A stretch of DNA of 10,206 nt from the IMG/VR virus record IMGVR_UViG_2698536672_000010. One strand, 5' to 3'. The notes under the pieces are model-generated. The model did not search any database, had not been told where the DNA came from, and saw only the letters and a program-made list of their open reading frames with translations. Source of the stretch: a virus (Duplodnaviria; Heunggongvirae; Uroviricota; Caudoviricetes). The position numbers and the translations under genes were made by a program. This document shows positions 1-5,715 of the stretch, one piece after another. How positions within the stretch are numbered: the stretch's first letter is position 1; every line of letters starts with the position of its first letter.

Positions 1-348
1 AGTTACCGGAGTTGGTCCATCGAATTCGGGCATGTCAGGACCTTTTCTGATAGCTTTAGCCAGCTCCAGCGGGTCATCGTAAAGCCAGTCGCCAGTTTGT
101 GGGTGATTTGCTTCTGCAAGCTGCGCAGCCCATTCAAGACCATCTTTTTTACCTTGGAGATAATCAAGTGGCAACTCTTCATGATTACTTGCAGGTTCGG
201 CACTATCAGCTTCGCGCCGCTTCTGTAGCTCTGCTGCCATTGCTCTCACGACTTCAACTGGTGCCCTTGCAGCAAACTCTATGTTGGTGATCAGCTCATT
301 AAGATATTGCTCGCCTGGATACTGTTTCTTATCGGTTATAGTGGTCAT
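1..348 (-). CDS. Hypothetical phage protein, 3' end beyond the window edge (absent from the supplied ORF track)
   Basis: ATG at 348-346 on the minus strand with AAGGAGAG Shine-Dalgarno 5 nt upstream. Translation MTTITDKKQYPGEQYLNELITNIEFAARAPVEVVRAMAAELQKRREADSAEP... stays open to position 1, so the track (which needs a stop) omitted it. Starts 1 nt after the stop of the gene at 350-1078. No recognisable domain. Confidence 0.5.
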   Translation of the reverse strand, partial: MTTITDKKQYPGEQYLNELITNIEFAARAPVEVVRAMAAELQKRREADSAEPASNHEELPLDYLQGKKDGLEWAAQLAEANHPQTGDWLYDDPLELAKAIRKGPDMPEFDGPTPVT

Positions 349-349
349 A

Positions 350-1078
350 TCACTCTCCTTTGATGCGAATGCCAGCTGCGCTTGCTGATTCTTCATATGC
401 GCGTTTAGCAGCGTTAAGGATTGCTGCCAGTGGCGTATAGCCGCCATCCATTCGGATTGTGTTGTGGATGCCAGCCATTGTGTCGCGCAATTTGCTGTGG
501 CTAGCAGACAGTTCTGCAATGCGCTTCTCTGCGGCTTCCAGCTTCTCGCGCATATCGTCAACGTACTCGACCAGAGATCCGCCAGCAGGAATTTCGCACT
601 CCTCGACCAGTTGGAAGTAGATATCAGCTGCGGCCCGTGTGTTGCTATGCCTAGCGTCGCCCATCTCACCTTCACGAAGAGCATCGCGTTCGGCGGTAAG
701 ATTGGCTATTTTGCTGTCTTTGCCTTCCAGCTCAACACGCAGCTTCCCTACCGTTAGCGCAATTTCCTCGTTCTCCTGGTCACGGCTTTTGATGTATTGC
801 TGGTTTCTTTCCCGTTCATCCAGCAGCGTCAGCACAGTAGCCGGACTGGCTGCGGCGATGAATTCAGCATTGGCCTGCTGTTCCATTTGGAAATCTTCAT
901 CGAAACCGCTTTCAGGATGCGCTCCTTCAATTCTGCAAATGGGAATATATCCAGCAGCCTCGCGATGAATTAGTGCATCATCACCATCAAATCGGCCCTC
1001 TCCATATTCGAGCGACCACACACCACACGTTGCTTTCTCTGCTATCTCACGCAGTGCCTGATAGTCAATCTTGCTCAC
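350..1078 (-). CDS. Ead/Ea22-like family prophage protein (putative)
   Basis: 242-aa ORF. N-terminus MSKIDYQALREIAEKATCGVW and the segment ANAEFIAAASPATVLTLLDE followed by a coiled-coil-like stretch match my recollection of Ead/Ea22-like proteins (not searched). Its ATG overlaps the stop of the upstream gene as ATGA. Confidence 0.5.
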   Translation of the reverse strand: MSKIDYQALREIAEKATCGVWSLEYGEGRFDGDDALIHREAAGYIPICRIEGAHPESGFDEDFQMEQQANAEFIAAASPATVLTLLDERERNQQYIKSRDQENEEIALTVGKLRVELEGKDSKIANLTAERDALREGEMGDARHSNTRAAADIYFQLVEECEIPAGGSLVEYVDDMREKLEAAEKRIAELSASHSKLRDTMAGIHNTIRMDGGYTPLAAILNAAKRAYEESASAAGIRIKGE

Positions 1079-1650
1079 TGGATGACTCCTTTACGAAGCA
1101 GTTCAGCAATACTTACGCATATCTCTGCGCCTCTAATCAGCCCCGGAACGTTCTTGTTTGGCCCAACTTCACCATCAACAAAATCAATCATCGCGTTACG
1201 AGCCATATCCACGCCCTGCGCCCGCACTTCAGCCAGGCATTTGCGAAACTCGGAAACGTACTGTTCGACGCTCATTCCCCAGCTAAGTGGACATTCATTG
1301 AATGTTTCGCCTTCGTGCTCTTCATCAGGTAGCTCTTTGGTAAAGAACTCACGTTCAATGGCGTGGAGTGTGTCAGCAAAACGACGTAAGTTACTCAAAC
1401 CTGTCGTAATGGAGAATTCAGGAGCATCACATCCGACGCCCATCTGCTGATAAACGGCGGTTTTGAAGGCCTTAAGCCCAGCATTCTCCGCTGCCAGCGC
1501 ATTAGCACGCACCAGTTGCACTTCCAGTTGCGTTGCCAAATCGCTGATCAGCTTTGCCACACTGCGCATATCAACGGCACCACATTCTGCGTTCAGTTCC
1601 GAAGCCATCTCATGCCCGGCGGCAACTAACCCTTTGATATTACTTTCCAT
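1075..1650 (-). CDS. Hypothetical phage protein
   Basis: 191-aa ORF with GAGGGT Shine-Dalgarno 5 nt upstream of the ATG at 1650. Stop overlaps the start of the downstream gene (ATGA). No domain recognised. Confidence 0.55.
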   Translation of the reverse strand: MESNIKGLVAAGHEMASELNAECGAVDMRSVAKLISDLATQLEVQLVRANALAAENAGLKAFKTAVYQQMGVGCDAPEFSITTGLSNLRRFADTLHAIEREFFTKELPDEEHEGETFNECPLSWGMSVEQYVSEFRKCLAEVRAQGVDMARNAMIDFVDGEVGPNKNVPGLIRGAEICVSIAELLRKGVIQ

Positions 1651-1711: not shown

Positions 1712-2056
1712 TCAGAACTCTTCGATGTTCCAGCCGCCACCTGCTTTCTTTGGTTTAACCGTTACCCCGATGATTCGGAACGGATACTGATCTGCGGCGA
1801 CTTTGGTTTTCACCCTGGCGTCGTCGGTCCAGAAACCTTTCACTTCGTGCAGTTCCATCTCTCCGGTGGCGAGCATCACAGCGAAATCTGGCGTATAGAA
1901 CGTGTTGTCAGCTAACCGCAGCTTGATACCCTCGAATCGATACCAGGCGATTTCCCCTGCACGTTTACGCAGCTCAAGGTGCTGGCAATACGCAGATTCT
2001 GTTTTGTTCATCTGGCCTGTTTTGAGTCGACCAAGAGCCTGTATCTGTTTTCTCAT
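1712..2056 (-). CDS. Small phage protein with a PD-(D/E)xK-like nuclease motif (putative)
   Basis: 114-aa ORF with GAGGTAA Shine-Dalgarno 5 nt upstream of the ATG at 2056. Contains YTPDF ... GEMELHEVKG, a D...E-x-K arrangement typical of PD-(D/E)xK nucleases. First gene after the P terminator and a predicted promoter. Confidence 0.55.
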   Translation of the reverse strand: MRKQIQALGRLKTGQMNKTESAYCQHLELRKRAGEIAWYRFEGIKLRLADNTFYTPDFAVMLATGEMELHEVKGFWTDDARVKTKVAADQYPFRIIGVTVKPKKAGGGWNIEEF

Positions 2057-2059
2057 GAT

Positions 2060-2074
2060 TTACCTCTAAGGTAA
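2060..2074. promoter_or_regulatory. Operator-like palindrome A (TTACC-TCTAA-GGTAA), perfect arms
   Basis: Perfect 5-bp inverted arms with a 5-bp spacer. Sits at the predicted +1/leader of the 1712-2056 gene and overlaps its Shine-Dalgarno, so the right arm could partly be ribosome-binding sequence. Confidence 0.45.
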
Positions 2075-2102
2075 TTAAAAACCACATAAGACACGAAATC
2101 AA
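2074..2102 (-). promoter_or_regulatory. Putative sigma70 promoter for the leftward gene block starting at 2056
   Basis: On the minus strand: TTGATT (plus 2097-2102), 17-nt spacer, TTTAAT (plus 2074-2079). Flanked by palindrome B upstream and palindrome A at +1. Confidence 0.35.
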
Positions 2103-2120
2103 TAGATCTAAGAACATTTT

Positions 2121-2137
2121 GTTACCTATTGGGTAAC
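2121..2137. promoter_or_regulatory. Operator-like palindrome B (GTTACC-TATTG-GGTAAC), perfect 6-bp arms
   Basis: Perfect inverted repeat read directly from the sequence. Centre lies about 62 bp upstream of the predicted start of the promoter at 2074-2102. Confidence 0.5.
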
Positions 2138-2148
2138 TATTGAGGCGT

Positions 2149-2168
2149 AAAAAAATGCGCTATCGCGC
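2149..2168 (-). terminator. Putative intrinsic terminator ending the replication operon
   Basis: Minus-strand reading gives GCGC-GATA-GCGC hairpin followed by A and seven T (plus-strand A-run 2149-2155), directly after the P stop at 2174. Stem is only 4 bp, so strength is uncertain. Confidence 0.35.
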
Positions 2169-2173
2169 TGGTA

Positions 2174-2974
2174 TTACTTGATAAATCCTGCTGCCTTTCC
2201 TCGCCTGTATTCCTCCATCAGCCACTGCGCCGGTGTTATTCCCCCCAGGGTGGCGGCGTTAGGCATGCACCCGAAACTTCGCCCTGGTGGATGGTAAACG
2301 TCTCTCCCTGTGTCCGGAGGTGTACTCATGGGTTCTGGCTTTGCCTGTATGCTGATCACCGGATCGGGTATCTGCTGTCCGGAAGCCACCTTTTTCGCCC
2401 AATCATCGAGCAACCTGCGCGCGTGTTTCTCAACCTCAATCTCGCTAAGCTGGCGCTGATACATTGCACGGCGGGTATCACATACGACCCAGTACATAAC
2501 CGGATGCCGCCACGGGAATCTTTCGGGACCACCAGGATATAAACTTTTTTCCTTGCTGTACCGGTGAAACTCCGCCATCACATCGTCAATGGTGACGCCA
2601 AGAACCATCTTGCTGTCTTTACACCACTTGATGAATTGCCCTGGCGACGGCCAGAACGGAGACTCACTGGCGCGAGCGTGGCGCATACCAGCAGAAACCT
2701 GTTCACGGGTTCGGATCCCACCTTCGGCAAACGCAGCAATCCACTGCTGTTTTGCAGCAACTTCCTGCTCTGGCGTCTTCAGGTTGGTTACCACTGCCGC
2801 CGGAAACAGTTGTTTCAGCTGTTTGAAAAGGGCATCAACAAGCCTCTCTGCTGACATGTTCACCACATTGTCATTGTTGACGTACTGATGCTCATAACCT
2901 GACATGCGAGAAAGGGCTTCTCCGTCACGGTTTTGTATCGCGGTAAAAACGTTGTTCACAAGAAATCCTCCCAT
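2174..2974 (-). CDS. P: Replication protein P homologue (lambda P-like DnaB helicase loader)
   Basis: Aligns by eye with lambda P as I recall it: window LFKQLKQLFPAAVV...QQWIAAFAEGGIRTREQVSAGMRHARASESPFWPSPGQFIKWCKD vs lambda FSQLLATFPASLAN...RRQWVLAFRENGITTMEQVNAGMRVARRQNRPFLPSPGQFVAWCRE. Likely true start is GTG at 2959 (GGAGGA 6 nt upstream), overlapping the O-like stop as GTGA; 2974 is the longest-ORF ATG. Confidence 0.85.
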   Translation of the reverse strand: MGGFLVNNVFTAIQNRDGEALSRMSGYEHQYVNNDNVVNMSAERLVDALFKQLKQLFPAAVVTNLKTPEQEVAAKQQWIAAFAEGGIRTREQVSAGMRHARASESPFWPSPGQFIKWCKDSKMVLGVTIDDVMAEFHRYSKEKSLYPGGPERFPWRHPVMYWVVCDTRRAMYQRQLSEIEVEKHARRLLDDWAKKVASGQQIPDPVISIQAKPEPMSTPPDTGRDVYHPPGRSFGCMPNAATLGGITPAQWLMEEYRRGKAAGFIK

Positions 2975-3771
2975 GCTTCAGGGCTGTTCCAGTGCGGAAC
3001 GTTGTTATCAGGTAATGTTGATTGCTTCTGTCTGCTAATCTGCAGCCGCCTTGCCAGCTTCTGCTCCCACTGTGCCTGATGGTATGCCTTACCCTCAGCC
3101 ATCCAGTAAATTCTGAACTCTGCAAGTTCCTGTGCCGTTGGCAGACTGTCCAGGTAGATCCCCTGCAATGAGCTTTTCCGAAGAAAGTCATCTGATGGCT
3201 GCCATTGTTCATGCATGACAAATTTGCCTAATTGCCCTGGCCCACCAGGAGGAACAAAGTTATTCATCACGGCGTTGTTTGCGCCGGGGTCATGAGGCAC
3301 AGAATCCCCGCTTTTTGTCCTGCTCTCCCTCTCTTGGTTAAATGACTGGTTATATGACTGGTTCTGGATCCCGTTTTTGGGATCATTCAACATCCCGTTT
3401 TTGGGATCATTCAACATCCCGTTTTTGGGTATATTCCCATTTTCGGTAACATTACCGTTTTCGGGTTCATTACCCCCTTCCCGGTTGCCTTTAATGTTCC
3501 CGTTTTTGGTTATATTAAGAGAGAAAACCCGCACTCTTTTCGTCGCTCCCTTTCTCTCTCCGGTATCTGAAATAAGCCCCATTTTCATGAGCGATATAAG
3601 CCCGGCCTGCACGGTTTTTTTATTCAGGCAAGTGTCTTTAACGAGGCGTTCTATGCTGGGGTAGCAGAGGTTATATTCATCGGCTCTGTCAGCCATCGAG
3701 AGCAGTATGAGCTTTAATGACGAGCTACCTGGATCTGTCTCCCAGGCCCAATCTGTTGCATGTCTGCTCAT
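2956..3771 (-). CDS. Replication initiator, O-like (winged-helix N-terminus, Asn-rich repetitive linker, C-terminal domain)
   Basis: 271-aa ORF immediately upstream of and coupled to the P homologue. GGAG Shine-Dalgarno 8 nt upstream of the ATG at 3771. N-terminus LKLILLSMADRADEYNLCYPSIERLVKDTCLNKKTVQAGLISLMKMGLISDTG looks like a winged-helix DNA-binding domain. Central linker is encoded by the iteron-like repeats. C-terminal region could be DnaT-like (uncertain recollection). Confidence 0.65.
   Translation of the reverse strand: MSRHATDWAWETDPGSSSLKLILLSMADRADEYNLCYPSIERLVKDTCLNKKTVQAGLISLMKMGLISDTGERKGATKRVRVFSLNITKNGNIKGNREGGNEPENGNVTENGNIPKNGMLNDPKNGMLNDPKNGIQNQSYNQSFNQERESRTKSGDSVPHDPGANNAVMNNFVPPGGPGQLGKFVMHEQWQPSDDFLRKSSLQGIYLDSLPTAQELAEFRIYWMAEGKAYHQAQWEQKLARRLQISRQKQSTLPDNNVPHWNSPEAWEDFL
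3340..3515. repeat. Iteron-like direct-repeat array inside the O-like gene (candidate replication origin)
   Basis: Core CC(C)GTTTT(T/C)GG occurs six times: 3370, 3394, 3418, 3436 (CCCATTTTCGG), 3455 and 3499. The first two copies are a perfect 24-bp tandem (CCCGTTTTTGGGATCATTCAACAT at 3370-3393 and 3394-3417). TGACTGGTT is also duplicated at 3342 and 3355. The repeats are in frame and encode the PKNGMLND linker. Confidence 0.55.
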
Positions 3772-3786
3772 GATTAATCTCCGCTA

Positions 3787-3987
3787 TCAGCTTGAATGTT
3801 GTGGGGAGGAATTAATCATGATCTGCTTAATCTCTGCCCTGATGCGACGGTTTGATTCCATGGTGCACTCAACACAGTGTCCGTTGTAAACCCAGCGTTC
3901 ACTGTCATGTCCGTGCTTACATGGTTTTCCGGTGTAGTAGCGTTTAAGTCCGCGCTTTGCGGCATCAATACGTGTAATGATTTCCAT
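3787..3987 (-). CDS. Small zinc-binding protein (Cys/His cluster), unknown function, in the cII position
   Basis: Preferred start is the ATG at 3987 (MEIITRIDAAKRGLKRYYTGKPCKHGHDSERWVYNGHCVEC...), with AGGG upstream. The longest ORF extends to 4050 but lacks a ribosome-binding site. Motif C-K-H-G-H ... N-G-H-C-V-E-C suggests a zinc ribbon or minimal HNH-like fold. Confidence 0.45.
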   Translation of the reverse strand: MEIITRIDAAKRGLKRYYTGKPCKHGHDSERWVYNGHCVECTMESNRRIRAEIKQIMINSSPQHSS

Positions 3988-4067
3988 GGTAAGCCCTGTT
4001 ATTAGTATTGGGATTACGGTCATTTTGTGCTGACACAAAAAAAAGATCAACCAGATTTGGTTATTTA

Positions 4068-4082
4068 TTACCTTTGAGGTAC
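4068..4082. promoter_or_regulatory. Operator-like palindrome C (TTACC-TTTGA-GGTAC), one mismatch
   Basis: Same family as A/B. Centre about 60 bp upstream of a candidate minus-strand promoter (TTGATC at plus 4045-4050, 17-nt spacer, CAAAAT at plus 4022-4027) that would drive the zinc-binding gene. Confidence 0.35.
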
Positions 4083-4090
4083 GAATAGAT

Positions 4091-4115
4091 ATGAAAAGAC
4101 CGCCGGGTGGCGGTC
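4091..4115 (-). terminator. Putative intrinsic terminator after the Cro-like gene
   Basis: Perfect hairpin GACCGCC-GGGT-GGCGGTC at 4098-4115. On the minus strand it is followed by TTTTCAT (plus-strand AAAA at 4094-4097). The T-run is short, so it may be a partial terminator or attenuator. Confidence 0.45.
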
Positions 4116-4137
4116 TACAGAGGGTTGTAGCTGGATA

Positions 4138-4368
4138 TCATGAGTAGAAGAAGTATGCCAGTTCTGCTTTTGAGCGCAGCCATTGTCTTGTTTTACAGGC
4201 TTTAAAAAGCCCATTCATCAATACTTTACCTGGCATTTTGCGCTTACCTGTTAAGTGAGTCTGGATATAGTGACTCGTCGTTCCGGCTTCCTGTGCGAAG
4301 GCTTCACGCTCATCCGGAGTAAGTGCAAGCCAGTGCTTTTTGAAATCGAAATGTCCGTTATCGCTCAT
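4138..4368 (-). CDS. Cro-like small HTH DNA-binding protein
   Basis: 76-aa ORF transcribed divergently from the CI-like repressor. Segment TPDEREAFAQEAGTTSHYIQTHLTGKRK has the pattern of a Cro/YdaS-type helix-turn-helix. First gene of the leftward replication operon. Confidence 0.6.
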   Translation of the reverse strand: MSDNGHFDFKKHWLALTPDEREAFAQEAGTTSHYIQTHLTGKRKMPGKVLMNGLFKACKTRQWLRSKAELAYFFYS

Positions 4369-4404: not shown

Positions 4405-4467
4405 TCACCCATAAGGTAACAAAAATCAAGGATAGTTACCTATGAGGTGCATTTACCTGTTGGGTAA
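4405..4467. promoter_or_regulatory. Tripartite operator region between the Cro-like and CI-like genes (palindromes D, E, F) with divergent promoters
   Basis: D 4405-4419 TCACC-CATAA-GGTAA (1 mismatch). E 4436-4450 TTACC-TATGA-GGTGC (2 mismatches). F 4453-4467 TTACC-TGTTG-GGTAA (perfect). Candidate minus-strand -35 TTGATT at plus 4424-4429, with D in its spacer/-10 region. Candidate plus-strand -35 elements TTGCTT (4470) and TTGAAT (4480) lie just right of F. Confidence 0.5.
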
Positions 4468-4522: not shown

Positions 4523-5107
4523 ATGAAAAGTATCCAGGACGTCCGCAGGCAAAATCTCAACGACTTGATCGACCGTGAATTCAATGGTGTTCAGACGCGG
4601 ATGGCAGAAAAACTTGGAACTCAGGCAAATCTGGTAAACCGCTGGGCTCTTGGCAAGAAGGTTATCGGCGACCAGGTTGCGCGAAAAATTGAAGCTGCCG
4701 CCAATAAACCCCGTAACTGGCTTGATATCGATCGCTCGCTTTCTCAGGAAGGTTTTCAGCCTGTCGGCCCAAGCGACATTGGTCAGCTGGCGGCTCACAA
4801 CCTGGAACGCTGGATGAGCGAAAGCCGCGACCTTTCAACACAGGGAAAACTTCACCGCGCATCCGGCGTCGCCCAGGTGACAATCAGCCGCCTGTTAAAC
4901 AATGAGGTCAGCGTTTCCATTTCCACCCTGGAGAATGTTGCATCCGCATTCGGGCGTCACGGCTATGAATTACTGATTCACCCGCACGACCCTGCGACTA
5001 TCAACTATGACCGCTCGCGCTACGCATTGTTACCCGAAACAGAGAAGGCAAAGATCGAAAGTTACATTGAATTTGTCATCAGCCAGAACGAAAAAAACAA
5101 ACAATAA
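4523..5107 (+). CDS. CI-like prophage repressor with two XRE-type HTH domains and no LexA-like peptidase domain
   Basis: 194-aa ORF. First HTH around GVQTRMAEKLGTQANLVNRWALGKK, second around GKLHRASGVAQVTISRLLNNEVSVSISTLENVASAFG. No S24 Ser/Lys dyad motif seen. Divergent from the Cro-like gene and followed by a strong terminator. Confidence 0.7.
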   Translation: MKSIQDVRRQNLNDLIDREFNGVQTRMAEKLGTQANLVNRWALGKKVIGDQVARKIEAAANKPRNWLDIDRSLSQEGFQPVGPSDIGQLAAHNLERWMSESRDLSTQGKLHRASGVAQVTISRLLNNEVSVSISTLENVASAFGRHGYELLIHPHDPATINYDRSRYALLPETEKAKIESYIEFVISQNEKNKQ

Positions 5108-5127: not shown

Positions 5128-5153
5128 AAGCCGCCTCATGGCGGCTTTTTTAT
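5128..5153 (+). terminator. Rho-independent terminator after the repressor gene
   Basis: Hairpin AAGCCGCC-TCAT-GGCGGCTT at 5128-5147 followed by TTTTTTATT, located 21 nt after the repressor stop. Confidence 0.7.
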
Positions 5154-5164
5154 TGCCAGCAAGA

Positions 5165-5241
5165 TTACCTTATGGGTGATTTTTTTAACTCATATCTATT
5201 GACATCAAACCAGATACGCATAATCATTACCTCAACGGTAA
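5165..5241 (+). promoter_or_regulatory. Early-left (PL-like) promoter of the recombination operon, flanked by palindromes G and H
   Basis: G 5165-5179 TTACC-TTATG-GGTGA (1 mismatch). -35 TTGACA at 5199-5204. -10 is ambiguous: CATAAT at 5219-5224 (14-nt spacer) or AATCAT at 5222-5227 (17-nt spacer). H 5227-5241 TTACC-TCAAC-GGTAA (perfect) lies at the predicted +1. Confidence 0.45.
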
Positions 5242-5260
5242 CAGACCGAGGTAACAAATT

Positions 5261-5413
5261 ATGCAGTGGAAAATCATCAACGGTTGGTACTGCGTTACTG
5301 CATGCGGATTCATGAGCTGGAAGTTCCGCACCTTACAGGAAGGCATTAAGTGGGCTTTCGTCAGCAAAGAAGCTCGCGATGTGGCCAACGATAACGAGAT
5401 ATGGGAGGGCTGA
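5261..5413 (+). CDS. Small hypothetical protein (50 aa), first gene of the recombination operon; below the track length cutoff
   Basis: ATG at 5261 with GAGGT 9 nt upstream. Translation MQWKIINGWYCVTACGFMSWKFRTLQEGIKWAFVSKEARDVANDNEIWEG, stop TGA at 5411-5413, 2 nt before the next start. No family recognised. Confidence 0.35.
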   Translation: MQWKIINGWYCVTACGFMSWKFRTLQEGIKWAFVSKEARDVANDNEIWEG

Positions 5414-5415
5414 TA

Positions 5416-5715
5416 ATGAACGTTAATCAGCAGAAAAATCTTCAAAAAATCATGCAGGCATTTGACAAGGACTACCACCTGTCAGAACAGCTATATGACC
5501 GACAAGTTGAACTGATTGAGAGCATCCGACTTCATCAACTGTCATCAACTTTCGACGTTGTAACAGGCAAAGGCGTTCGTCAGGAAGTACTGGAGGCTGC
5601 TAAAGACAGCCCTGAGTTCGAAGAACTGATGGATGCCTATCGGCGAGAGGCAATGGCAATTATCGCCCGCTGGGATCTGGCGGATCAGCTTGATGGACAG
5701 AAGGACGCGGCATGA
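5416..5715 (+). CDS. Hypothetical protein (99 aa), coupled upstream of the exonuclease
   Basis: ATG at 5416 with GGGAGGG Shine-Dalgarno 6 nt upstream; the track's 5401 start lies inside that Shine-Dalgarno. Stop overlaps the exonuclease start as ATGA. Acidic C-terminus; no domain recognised. Confidence 0.55.
   Translation: MNVNQQKNLQKIMQAFDKDYHLSEQLYDRQVELIESIRLHQLSSTFDVVTGKGVRQEVLEAAKDSPEFEELMDAYRREAMAIIARWDLADQLDGQKDAA

Follow-up and report, generated by a model that had tools for sequence, protein, structure and literature searches.

The early region of a phiV10/epsilon15-like prophage of Escherichia coli (Uetakevirus, the genus of epsilon15-like podoviruses) carries a recurrent palindrome, TTACC-N5-GGTAA, whose copies are most likely operators of the phage repressor Rep and bracket predicted early promoters that are insulated by terminators. 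The DNA analysed, here called the window, is the 10,206-nucleotide stretch of IMG/VR record IMGVR_UViG_2698536672_000010 (Caudoviricetes), and the element in question occupies positions 2057-2173, which form the exact 117-bp gap between the start of a DUF1064 gene (ATG at 2056, minus strand) and the stop of a lambda-P-like replication gene (2174). Two perfect palindromes in this gap, operators A and B, flank a predicted promoter that we call P_AB, and an operator pair of the same geometry, G and H, flanks the PL-like promoter of the window. The reading that we favour, and consider reasonably probable, is that Rep clamps such promoters by holding both operators at once, with looping of the DNA between them.

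Results

Allowing at most one mismatch, a pattern search for TTACC-N5-GGTAA returned eight matches in the window against 0.18 expected, a count that was reached by none of 200 shuffled sequences, and all but one of the eight fall in regulatory DNA between genes. Such a pattern search was required, as these palindromes of 5 + 5 bp were missed by a generic inverted-repeat search. The eighth match, at 149-163, lies within a gene, has two mismatches in a relative (L002) and is probably due to chance; together with further in-gene candidates at 1329-1343, 4244-4258 and 5750-5764, all of them weak or unconserved between lineages, it was set aside as the product of chance or coding constraint. We also considered whether the palindromes as a whole could be chance matches or by-products of ribosome-binding sites (GGTAA overlapping GAGG), given that the Shine-Dalgarno sequence of the DUF1064 gene is overlapped by operator A. 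This explanation is refuted by the excess of the motif and by the pair spacing and lineage conservation described below: the TTACC half of A lies outside the Shine-Dalgarno sequence, yet is invariant, and operator and Shine-Dalgarno sequence stand apart in one lineage (L112), so that A is more than a ribosome-binding site. The observation is genuine and far exceeds what chance would give.

Read in the direction of transcription from the P-like gene, the 117-bp gap contains a weak intrinsic terminator (RNA fold -7.4 kcal/mol, z -1.67; a terminator is annotated at the equivalent place in the phiV10 record), then operator B, the predicted P_AB and operator A. P_AB (TTGATT-17-TTTAAT) matches the sigma-70 consensus at 9 of 12 positions, with the T at position 6 of the -10 present and the A at position 2 absent. 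The last T of this -10 is the first T of operator A, and the predicted +1 at about 2067 coincides with the centre of A, which places B at -62. The register at PL is identical, with G followed by 19 bp and the -35, and with the last T of the -10 serving as the first T of H; the centre-to-centre distance is 62 bp for both A-B and G-H. On the transcribed strand the two promoters therefore share a common cassette, composed of a 15-bp operator, 19 bp, TTGAnn, 17 bp and a hexamer that ends on the first T of the downstream operator. B, G and a further operator, C, each follow the T-run of a terminator by 12-18 bp and are in turn followed by a promoter.

In the case of C this promoter is P_C, predicted to serve the zinc-ribbon, DnaT-like and P genes, and the operator is centred 60 bp upstream of its predicted start. 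No partner for C was found 62 bp downstream, where the +1 register holds a half-site only. In phage BUCT554 this +1 operator is nearly intact (TTACCGTAATAGTAA) and the upstream site has decayed, and in the other lineages the reverse is seen. The TTGATC of P_C is identical in six of six lineages with a spacer of 16-17 bp, and its -10 reads CAAAAT in five of them and AAAAAT in Tyrion.

A first-pass annotation of the window had placed A on the +1 and B about 62 bp upstream of the start of a minus-strand promoter at 2074-2102, had described the same geometry for G and H at the PL-like promoter, and had put C about 60 bp upstream of a candidate promoter for the zinc-binding gene. All three placements hold, with centres at 2067 and 2129 for A and B, 62 bp and an identical register for G and H, and 60 bp from the start of TTGATC-17-CAAAAT for C. 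The accompanying statement that an operator pair recurs at three promoters stands for A/B and G/H only, as the third promoter retains the upstream site C and no more than a vestigial half-site at +1. Its regulatory reading is correct for the most part at two promoters and in part at the third, and a Rep clamp appears plausible.

At PL, the Salmonella phages SPC32H (L003 4586-4600) and epsilon15 (L088 6793-6808) possess a third operator 76 bp downstream of the equivalent of H, adjoining the ribosome-binding site of the first PL gene. The window has a much shorter PL leader, with no more than a repeated GGTAAC half-site at that place (5241-5260).

Conservation was assessed among the Enterobacter phages Tyrion and BUCT554, the Salmonella phages SPC32H and epsilon15, the Klebsiella phage BUCT711 and additional lineages from metagenomes, the repressors of the named phages being 42-100% identical to Rep of the window. 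The order terminator, B, 19 bp, TTGA, 17 bp, AT-rich -10, A and start codon is retained in the gap behind the replication genes in nine lineages. All four half-sites of A and B and the TTGA at the -35 register are invariant in the nine, and the 5-bp spacers and much of the intervening DNA vary. The GCGC stem (GCGC-N4-GCGC) and T7 run of the terminator are found in eight of the nine, with a variable loop and irrespective of the upstream gene; in L112 the terminator's place is taken by a different GC-rich sequence with a shorter, interrupted T-run. When shifted by 1 bp, the -10 register reads TAAATT or TATATT in six of the nine lineages. Behind the cassette, the DUF1064 gene is replaced by a RuvC-type resolvase gene in epsilon15, Tyrion and L112. 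At PL, TTGAC and positions 2, 5 and 6 of the -10 are invariant in eight lineages, which is the pattern expected from a real sigma-70 promoter. Conservation across the genus supports the earlier proposal that the palindromes are regulator sites in fixed relation to promoters, and the terminator in eight of nine lineages, its annotation in phiV10 and the invariant TTGA support the further proposal that the genes to the left of P form a separately regulated unit.

These data also bear on a reading in which no promoter lies between B and A, the downstream genes being transcribed through the weak terminator and the palindromes acting as roadblocks to leftover elongation in the lysogen, in the manner of the stoperators of mycobacteriophage L5. 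Such a reading would account for a -10 poor enough to be missed by the scan, for the weak terminator hairpin and for the scattering of the palindrome over the whole genome of relatives. We consider it improbable, as TTGA is invariant in nine lineages at the exact register seen at PL and is accompanied by an AT-rich hexamer at the place of the -10, the sites are symmetric and intergenic, unlike stoperators, and the T7 run is kept in nearly every lineage, suggesting that termination matters. Inspection of both strands of 2057-2173 by eye revealed no better promoter. For a conserved TGTGG block in the P_AB spacer, readings as a CRP site, a DnaA box and an IHF site were tried, and all were poor fits.

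The spacing of the pairs was then tabulated in larger samples. Among distinct sequences at repressor-anchored loci it is 62 bp in 101, 61 bp in 2 and 63 bp in 3, and an unbiased scan of viral contigs that allowed 52-72 bp returned 62 bp in 101, 63 bp in 15, 61 bp in 2 and at most 3 for each other distance. In species-representative genomes of enterobacteria (Citrobacter, Klebsiella, Kluyvera, Buttiauxella, Erwinia, Scandinavium, Superficieibacter and others), TTGA stands at the -35 register of 18 pairs, which are spaced by 62 bp (15), 61 bp (2) or 63 bp (1). A distance of 62 bp corresponds to 5.9 helical turns (62/10.5), so that the conserved spacing is near-integral.

The scan of species-representative genomes also gave unrelated matches in Bacteroidota and Firmicutes. 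Arrays of TTACC-N5-GGTAA flank or sit within TTGACA promoters, at different spacing, in viral (phage) contigs (L114, L198) and in unrelated genomes of Gram-positive bacteria and mollicutes (Firmicutes and Tenericutes; L262, L245, L218, L253 and others), and this type of operator may be common to a much wider family of repressors.

Among about 80 prophages whose repressors are 99-100% identical, the central bases of B and G together with about 10 bp upstream that separate operator from terminator make up the densest multi-allelic hotspot of the region (2127-2130 and 2137-2146; 5156-5164 and 5170-5174). Four consecutive positions have a diversity of at least 0.5, compared with a window mean of 0.03, and 75 loci contain 26 distinct B spacers, compared with a median of 2 per 5-mer. 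The half-sites never vary in this set, and the spacers of A and H vary far less than those of B and G. This diversity may stem from a loosening of constraint, from adjustment of affinity or from locally frequent mutation.

We take Rep to be the protein that binds these sites because the palindrome also forms a three-site cluster between the cro-like gene and rep, the expected place for repressor operators; the first operator of this cluster (4405-4419) overlaps a PR-like promoter (4422-4394, minus strand). A phmmer search against the PDB aligned residues 1-190 of Rep with the Rep protein of SPC32H (PDB 5D50; E 4.1e-42), and the homology spans the DNA-binding, middle and C-terminal tetramerisation regions. 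Pfam gives only helix-turn-helix (HTH) families for Rep, namely a clear HTH_3 match at 106-147 and a below-cutoff match to the HTH-like YdaS_toxin at 21-61, and no peptidase family, the S24 peptidase domain for RecA-dependent autocleavage being absent. SPC32H Rep is described as a tetramer that binds palindromic DNA and in which DNA-binding pairs are formed by domains of different dimers (reported second-hand in PMC9638917). Its C-terminal domain has been likened to the tetramerisation domain of Rco and p53, a type found in loop-forming regulators, although the structural mechanism of repression by Rep 'has not been extensively characterized' (PMC9986798). From homology that includes the C-terminal region, we infer that the Rep oligomer of the window has two separate DNA-binding units, and homology to the tetrameric SPC32H protein makes repression through both sites, as had been suggested at first pass, plausible.

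Outside the window, a LexA-type box (CTGT-N8-ACAG) is located upstream of the ant homologue in phiV10 (CTGTATAAATACACAG; L005, about 20825-20845) and likewise in SPC32H (CTGTATAAACATACAG; L006, about 19958-19978), which fits antirepressor-mediated SOS induction in this phage group.

From the observed motif, geometry, conservation and Rep homology we propose that Rep binds these sites, that transcription starts at the predicted positions and that the DNA loops. The 117-bp gap would constitute a self-contained regulatory cassette in which the weak terminator closes the replication-gene unit and P_AB, as an internal early promoter, restarts transcription beyond it, flanked by Rep operators at about -62 (B) and over the +1 and the last base of the -10 (A). 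PL would carry the identical cassette (G/H), and P_C a decayed one (C at -60, a half-site at +1). In a lysogen, Rep on its operators would silence each terminator-insulated unit directly: a Rep tetramer on the +1 operator would block RNA polymerase by occlusion, and its other DNA-binding pair would most likely take up the upstream site, which lies about six turns away on the same helix face, stabilising binding and producing a small loop or clamp. The role of the upstream operator is most plausibly to give cooperative binding by one tetramer, whether as loop or as clamp. Upon inactivation of Rep, which in relatives is brought about by an antirepressor, each unit would fire from its own promoter, such that antitermination of the lambda N type would not be needed. 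The right arm would then consist of three units, one with the cro-like gene, one with the replication genes and one with the DUF1064 gene and those beyond it, each having a Rep-controlled promoter.

Alternatively, Rep may bind the two sites independently and without a loop, A occluding the +1 and -10 and B acting either as a roadblock or insulator against leakage from upstream or by occluding the region of the UP element and the alpha C-terminal domain of RNA polymerase. The position of B, C and G shortly past a terminator T-run agrees with this explanation, as does the adequacy of a single site at P_C in each lineage, and positioning relative to the promoter explains the conserved spacing equally well. 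We nevertheless regard it as rather unlikely. PR itself is repressed in the lysogen, so that little transcription arrives at B, the exact 19 bp between site and -35 at PL and P_AB in all lineages exceeds what a roadblock needs, and two DNA-binding pairs are present in the tetrameric homologue of Rep (PMC9638917).

The first-pass annotation had offered, as a second possibility, that the upstream operator serves class I activation. Rep or the cro-like protein, bound at -62, would in that case recruit RNA polymerase to a weak promoter via the alpha C-terminal domain. The centre of B at -62 is indeed near the classical class I position, which for CRP is -61.5, and the -10 of P_AB is weak. We give this proposal very little credence: the same palindrome covers the +1, a repressing position; PL, which has the same upstream site, possesses a consensus TTGACA -35 and invariant key bases in its -10 and so needs no activator; and there is no evidence for activation by Rep.

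Several observations weigh against the clamp that we favour, or against parts of it. The -10 of P_AB is without the nearly universal A at position 2 (the -11 A) and was not reported by the consensus scan, and a start at 2067 would leave a leader of only 11 nt with the Shine-Dalgarno sequence at its extreme 5' end; with this weak -10 and short leader, P_AB may have little activity or need a further factor. The hairpin after P is a weak terminator, and downstream transcription may come largely from read-through; some contribution from read-through is probable because the -10 of P_AB is poor in this lineage and the terminator weak. One good site suffices at P_C in every lineage, so pairs are not obligatory. 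Fixed spacing is demanded by any function exerted relative to a promoter and does not prove looping, and, as two operators of the three-site cluster are 17 bp apart, the tetramer may normally bridge adjacent sites rather than pairs 62 bp apart. Lastly, a second conserved palindrome, M (CCATATATGG), is found inside the promoter spacer, suggesting that another regulator acts there too.

M occurs at recurring fixed positions in the window and its relatives. Besides the copies listed in the table, it stands 9-12 bp before the -10 of the late promoters of relatives, namely those for lysis, tail-fibre and head genes (L005 24738-24747, 20920-20929 and 3307-3316; L006 24828-24837 and 34801-34810). Genome-wide, M is not significantly enriched at up to two mismatches, and what speaks for it is its positional conservation. 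In a more far-reaching version of our proposal, one Rep tetramer would bridge -62 and +1 into a micro-loop of about 47 bp, the clamp cassette would be a genus-wide substitute for antitermination, and a second regulator acting through CCATATATGG in the PL and P_AB spacers, at -41 of P_C and at late promoters would order early and late transcription; we put this forward tentatively and consider it doubtful as a whole.

Beyond the window, the operator palindrome is found before almost every transcription unit of phiV10, SPC32H and epsilon15, at homologous places in phiV10 and SPC32H. In these two phages, about 14 sites stand before nearly every operon. The units so preceded include the terminase small subunit gene, the head genes, the ant/tail-fibre (tail-spike) region, the lysis cassette and int, with sites at 87-119, 3252-3266, 20497-20511, 20877-20891, 24692-24706 and 26870-26884 in phiV10 (L005) and at 12-26, 3175-3189, 20013-20027, 24782-24796 and 26960-26974 in SPC32H (L006). 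The regulon of the repressor appears to be genome-wide. Just to the right of the window, about 45-60 bp past the int start codon, a one-mismatch palindrome (ATACCTTTAAGGTAA; L001 10354-10368) lies upstream of the integrase gene. It is kept in four lineages (also L002 12279-12293, L003 11154-11168 and L004 12050-12064), with the spacer TTTAA in three and TTTAG in Tyrion, is present in the integrated prophage, and may be an int operator or part of attP.

The window as a whole (10.2 kb) shares 96-98% identity with the early regions of Escherichia phage phiV10 and related phages, with phiV10 itself at 97%, and is matched by hundreds of E. coli prophages adjoining guaA; the prophage of strain BCE049 reaches 99.8% identity. 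Within the DnaT-like initiator gene, positions 3335-3474 contain internal tandem repeats, comprising a 12-bp unit (2.4 copies, 3335-3363), a 24-bp unit (2.6 copies, 3368-3429, 100% matches) and an 18-bp unit (3.1 copies, 3419-3474), which look like origin iterons inside an initiator gene, as in lambda O. Dense biallelic variation, in two haplotype groups, is seen in the 5' half of the RecT gene (6550-7100) among otherwise near-identical prophages, a pattern that indicates a mosaic recombination segment.

Table. Coordinates of operators, predicted promoters, terminators, M palindromes and genes in the window
Feature	Position	Strand	Details
Operator A, TTACCTCTAAGGTAA	2060-2074		perfect; centre 2067; covers predicted +1 and Shine-Dalgarno GAGG (2066-2063) of DUF1064 gene
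Operator B, TTACCTATTGGGTAA	2122-2136		perfect; centre 2129; about -62 of predicted P_AB start
Operator C, TTACCTTTGAGGTAC	4068-4082		one mismatch; centre 4075; about -60 of P_C
Three operators between cro-like gene and rep	4405-4419, 4436-4450 (two mismatches), 4453-4467		centres 31 and 17 bp apart
Operator G, TTACCTTATGGGTGA	5165-5179		one mismatch; centre 5172; -62 of PL
Operator H, TTACCTCAACGGTAA	5227-5241		perfect; centre 5234; on +1 of PL
Vestigial +1 operator of P_C, TGACCGTAATCCCAA	4008-4022	-	left half-site alone survives
Predicted -10 of P_AB, TTTAAT	2074-2079	-	5/6, T for A at position 2; read from sequence
Predicted -35 of P_AB, TTGATT	2097-2102	-	19 bp downstream of B
Predicted promoter P_C, TTGATC (4050-4045)-17-CAAAAT (4027-4022)	4022-4050	-	start about 4015; for zinc-ribbon, DnaT-like and P genes
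PL-like promoter, TTGACA-17-AATCAT	5199-5227	+	10/12 in consensus scan
Terminator after P-like gene	2149-2168	-	weak, intrinsic; GCGC-GATA-GCGC hairpin (2168-2157), one A, T7 run (2155-2149)
Intrinsic terminator after cro-like gene	4097-4116	-	fold -15 kcal/mol, z -5.0; annotated in phiV10
Strong terminator after rep	5128-5147	+	fold -21 kcal/mol, z -6.1; 18 bp before G
M in P_AB spacer, degenerate (tCTTATGTGG)	2081-2090	-	CCGTATATGG in Tyrion and L092; 43.5 bp from B centre
M at P_C, CCAAATCTGG as read on the minus strand	4051-4060		perfect CCATATATGG in Tyrion; abuts -35, centre about -41; at least 8/10 matches in six lineages
M in PL spacer, degenerate	5211-5220		43.5 bp from upstream operator centre
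Eae- and Ead-like genes	1-1650	-	
DUF1064 gene	1712-2056	-	first in unit downstream of P_AB; Pfam PF06356
Lambda-P-like replication gene	2174-2974	-	last of upstream unit; Pfam PF06992, E 1.5e-56
DnaT-like initiator	2956-3771	-	
Zinc-ribbon gene	3787-3987	-	
Cro-like small regulator	4138-4368	-	PHROG 35 'transcriptional repressor', E 6e-13
Repressor Rep	4523-5107	+	194 amino acids
Leftward early operon	5261-8952	+	small open reading frames, PD-(D/E)XK nuclease, RecT, AlpA-like, PerC-like, methyltransferase
Integrase	8956-10206	-	

Discussion

The arrangement described here supplies a concrete target geometry for a structurally unusual repressor, a Rep tetramer in which the DNA-binding domains of different dimers are paired. 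It further illustrates how an early region like that of lambda could work without antitermination of the N type, through terminator-bounded units that have their own repressor-controlled promoters. As prophages of many enterobacterial genera, among them the common E. coli guaA prophages, carry the cassette, a correct map of its promoters and operators would help in predicting induction behaviour and in engineering reporter phages of the phiV10 type.

The Rep/Ant lysis-lysogeny switch of SPC32H has reportedly been the subject of studies by Kim and Ryu in 2013 and Kim et al. in 2016 (PDB 5D50/5D4Z). The window resembles this phage in the full-length homology of its repressor and in having the same palindrome in the same 62-bp pairs at homologous places, and differs from it in the repressor itself, which is about 42% identical, and in the operator spacers, which are almost all A/T in SPC32H and contain G/C in the window. 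In the RefSeq record of epsilon15 (NC_004775.2), features labelled 'protein_bind: repressor, lysogeny' correspond to the equivalents of B, G and H and to the third PL site, and sites are also marked ahead of the genes for the terminase small subunit, head and tail fibre; neither the counterpart of A nor the operators separating rep from the cro-like gene are annotated in that record, which marks no promoters and no pair geometry. Because such palindromes are already marked there as repressor sites, the novelty of our findings is modest. In the accessible full-text literature, whose coverage excludes the primary papers on SPC32H and epsilon15, we found no description of operator geometry for Uetakevirus, and the paper on phage ZX5 gives promoter predictions only.

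Two wider groups of repressors invite comparison. Dispersed-operator prophage regulons are those of P1 C1, of CB in N15 and PY54, and of gp71 in mycobacteriophage L5 with its stoperators. The window is like these in that one repressor would directly control many separate units, and unlike L5, whose sites are asymmetric, orientation-dependent and placed in transcribed DNA, it has symmetric palindromes in intergenic promoter regions. With LacI (O1/O3), GalR (OE/OI), lambda CI (cooperativity at 5-6 turns) and Rco of pLS20, the proposed arrangement would share an oligomeric repressor and two in-phase operators around a promoter; compared with these loop-forming tetrameric repressors, the loop would be very short, with 47 bp between the edges of the sites. 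Taken together, the control of these early promoters would be an extension of ordinary phage repressor logic, and is a well-documented new instance of it rather than a new principle.

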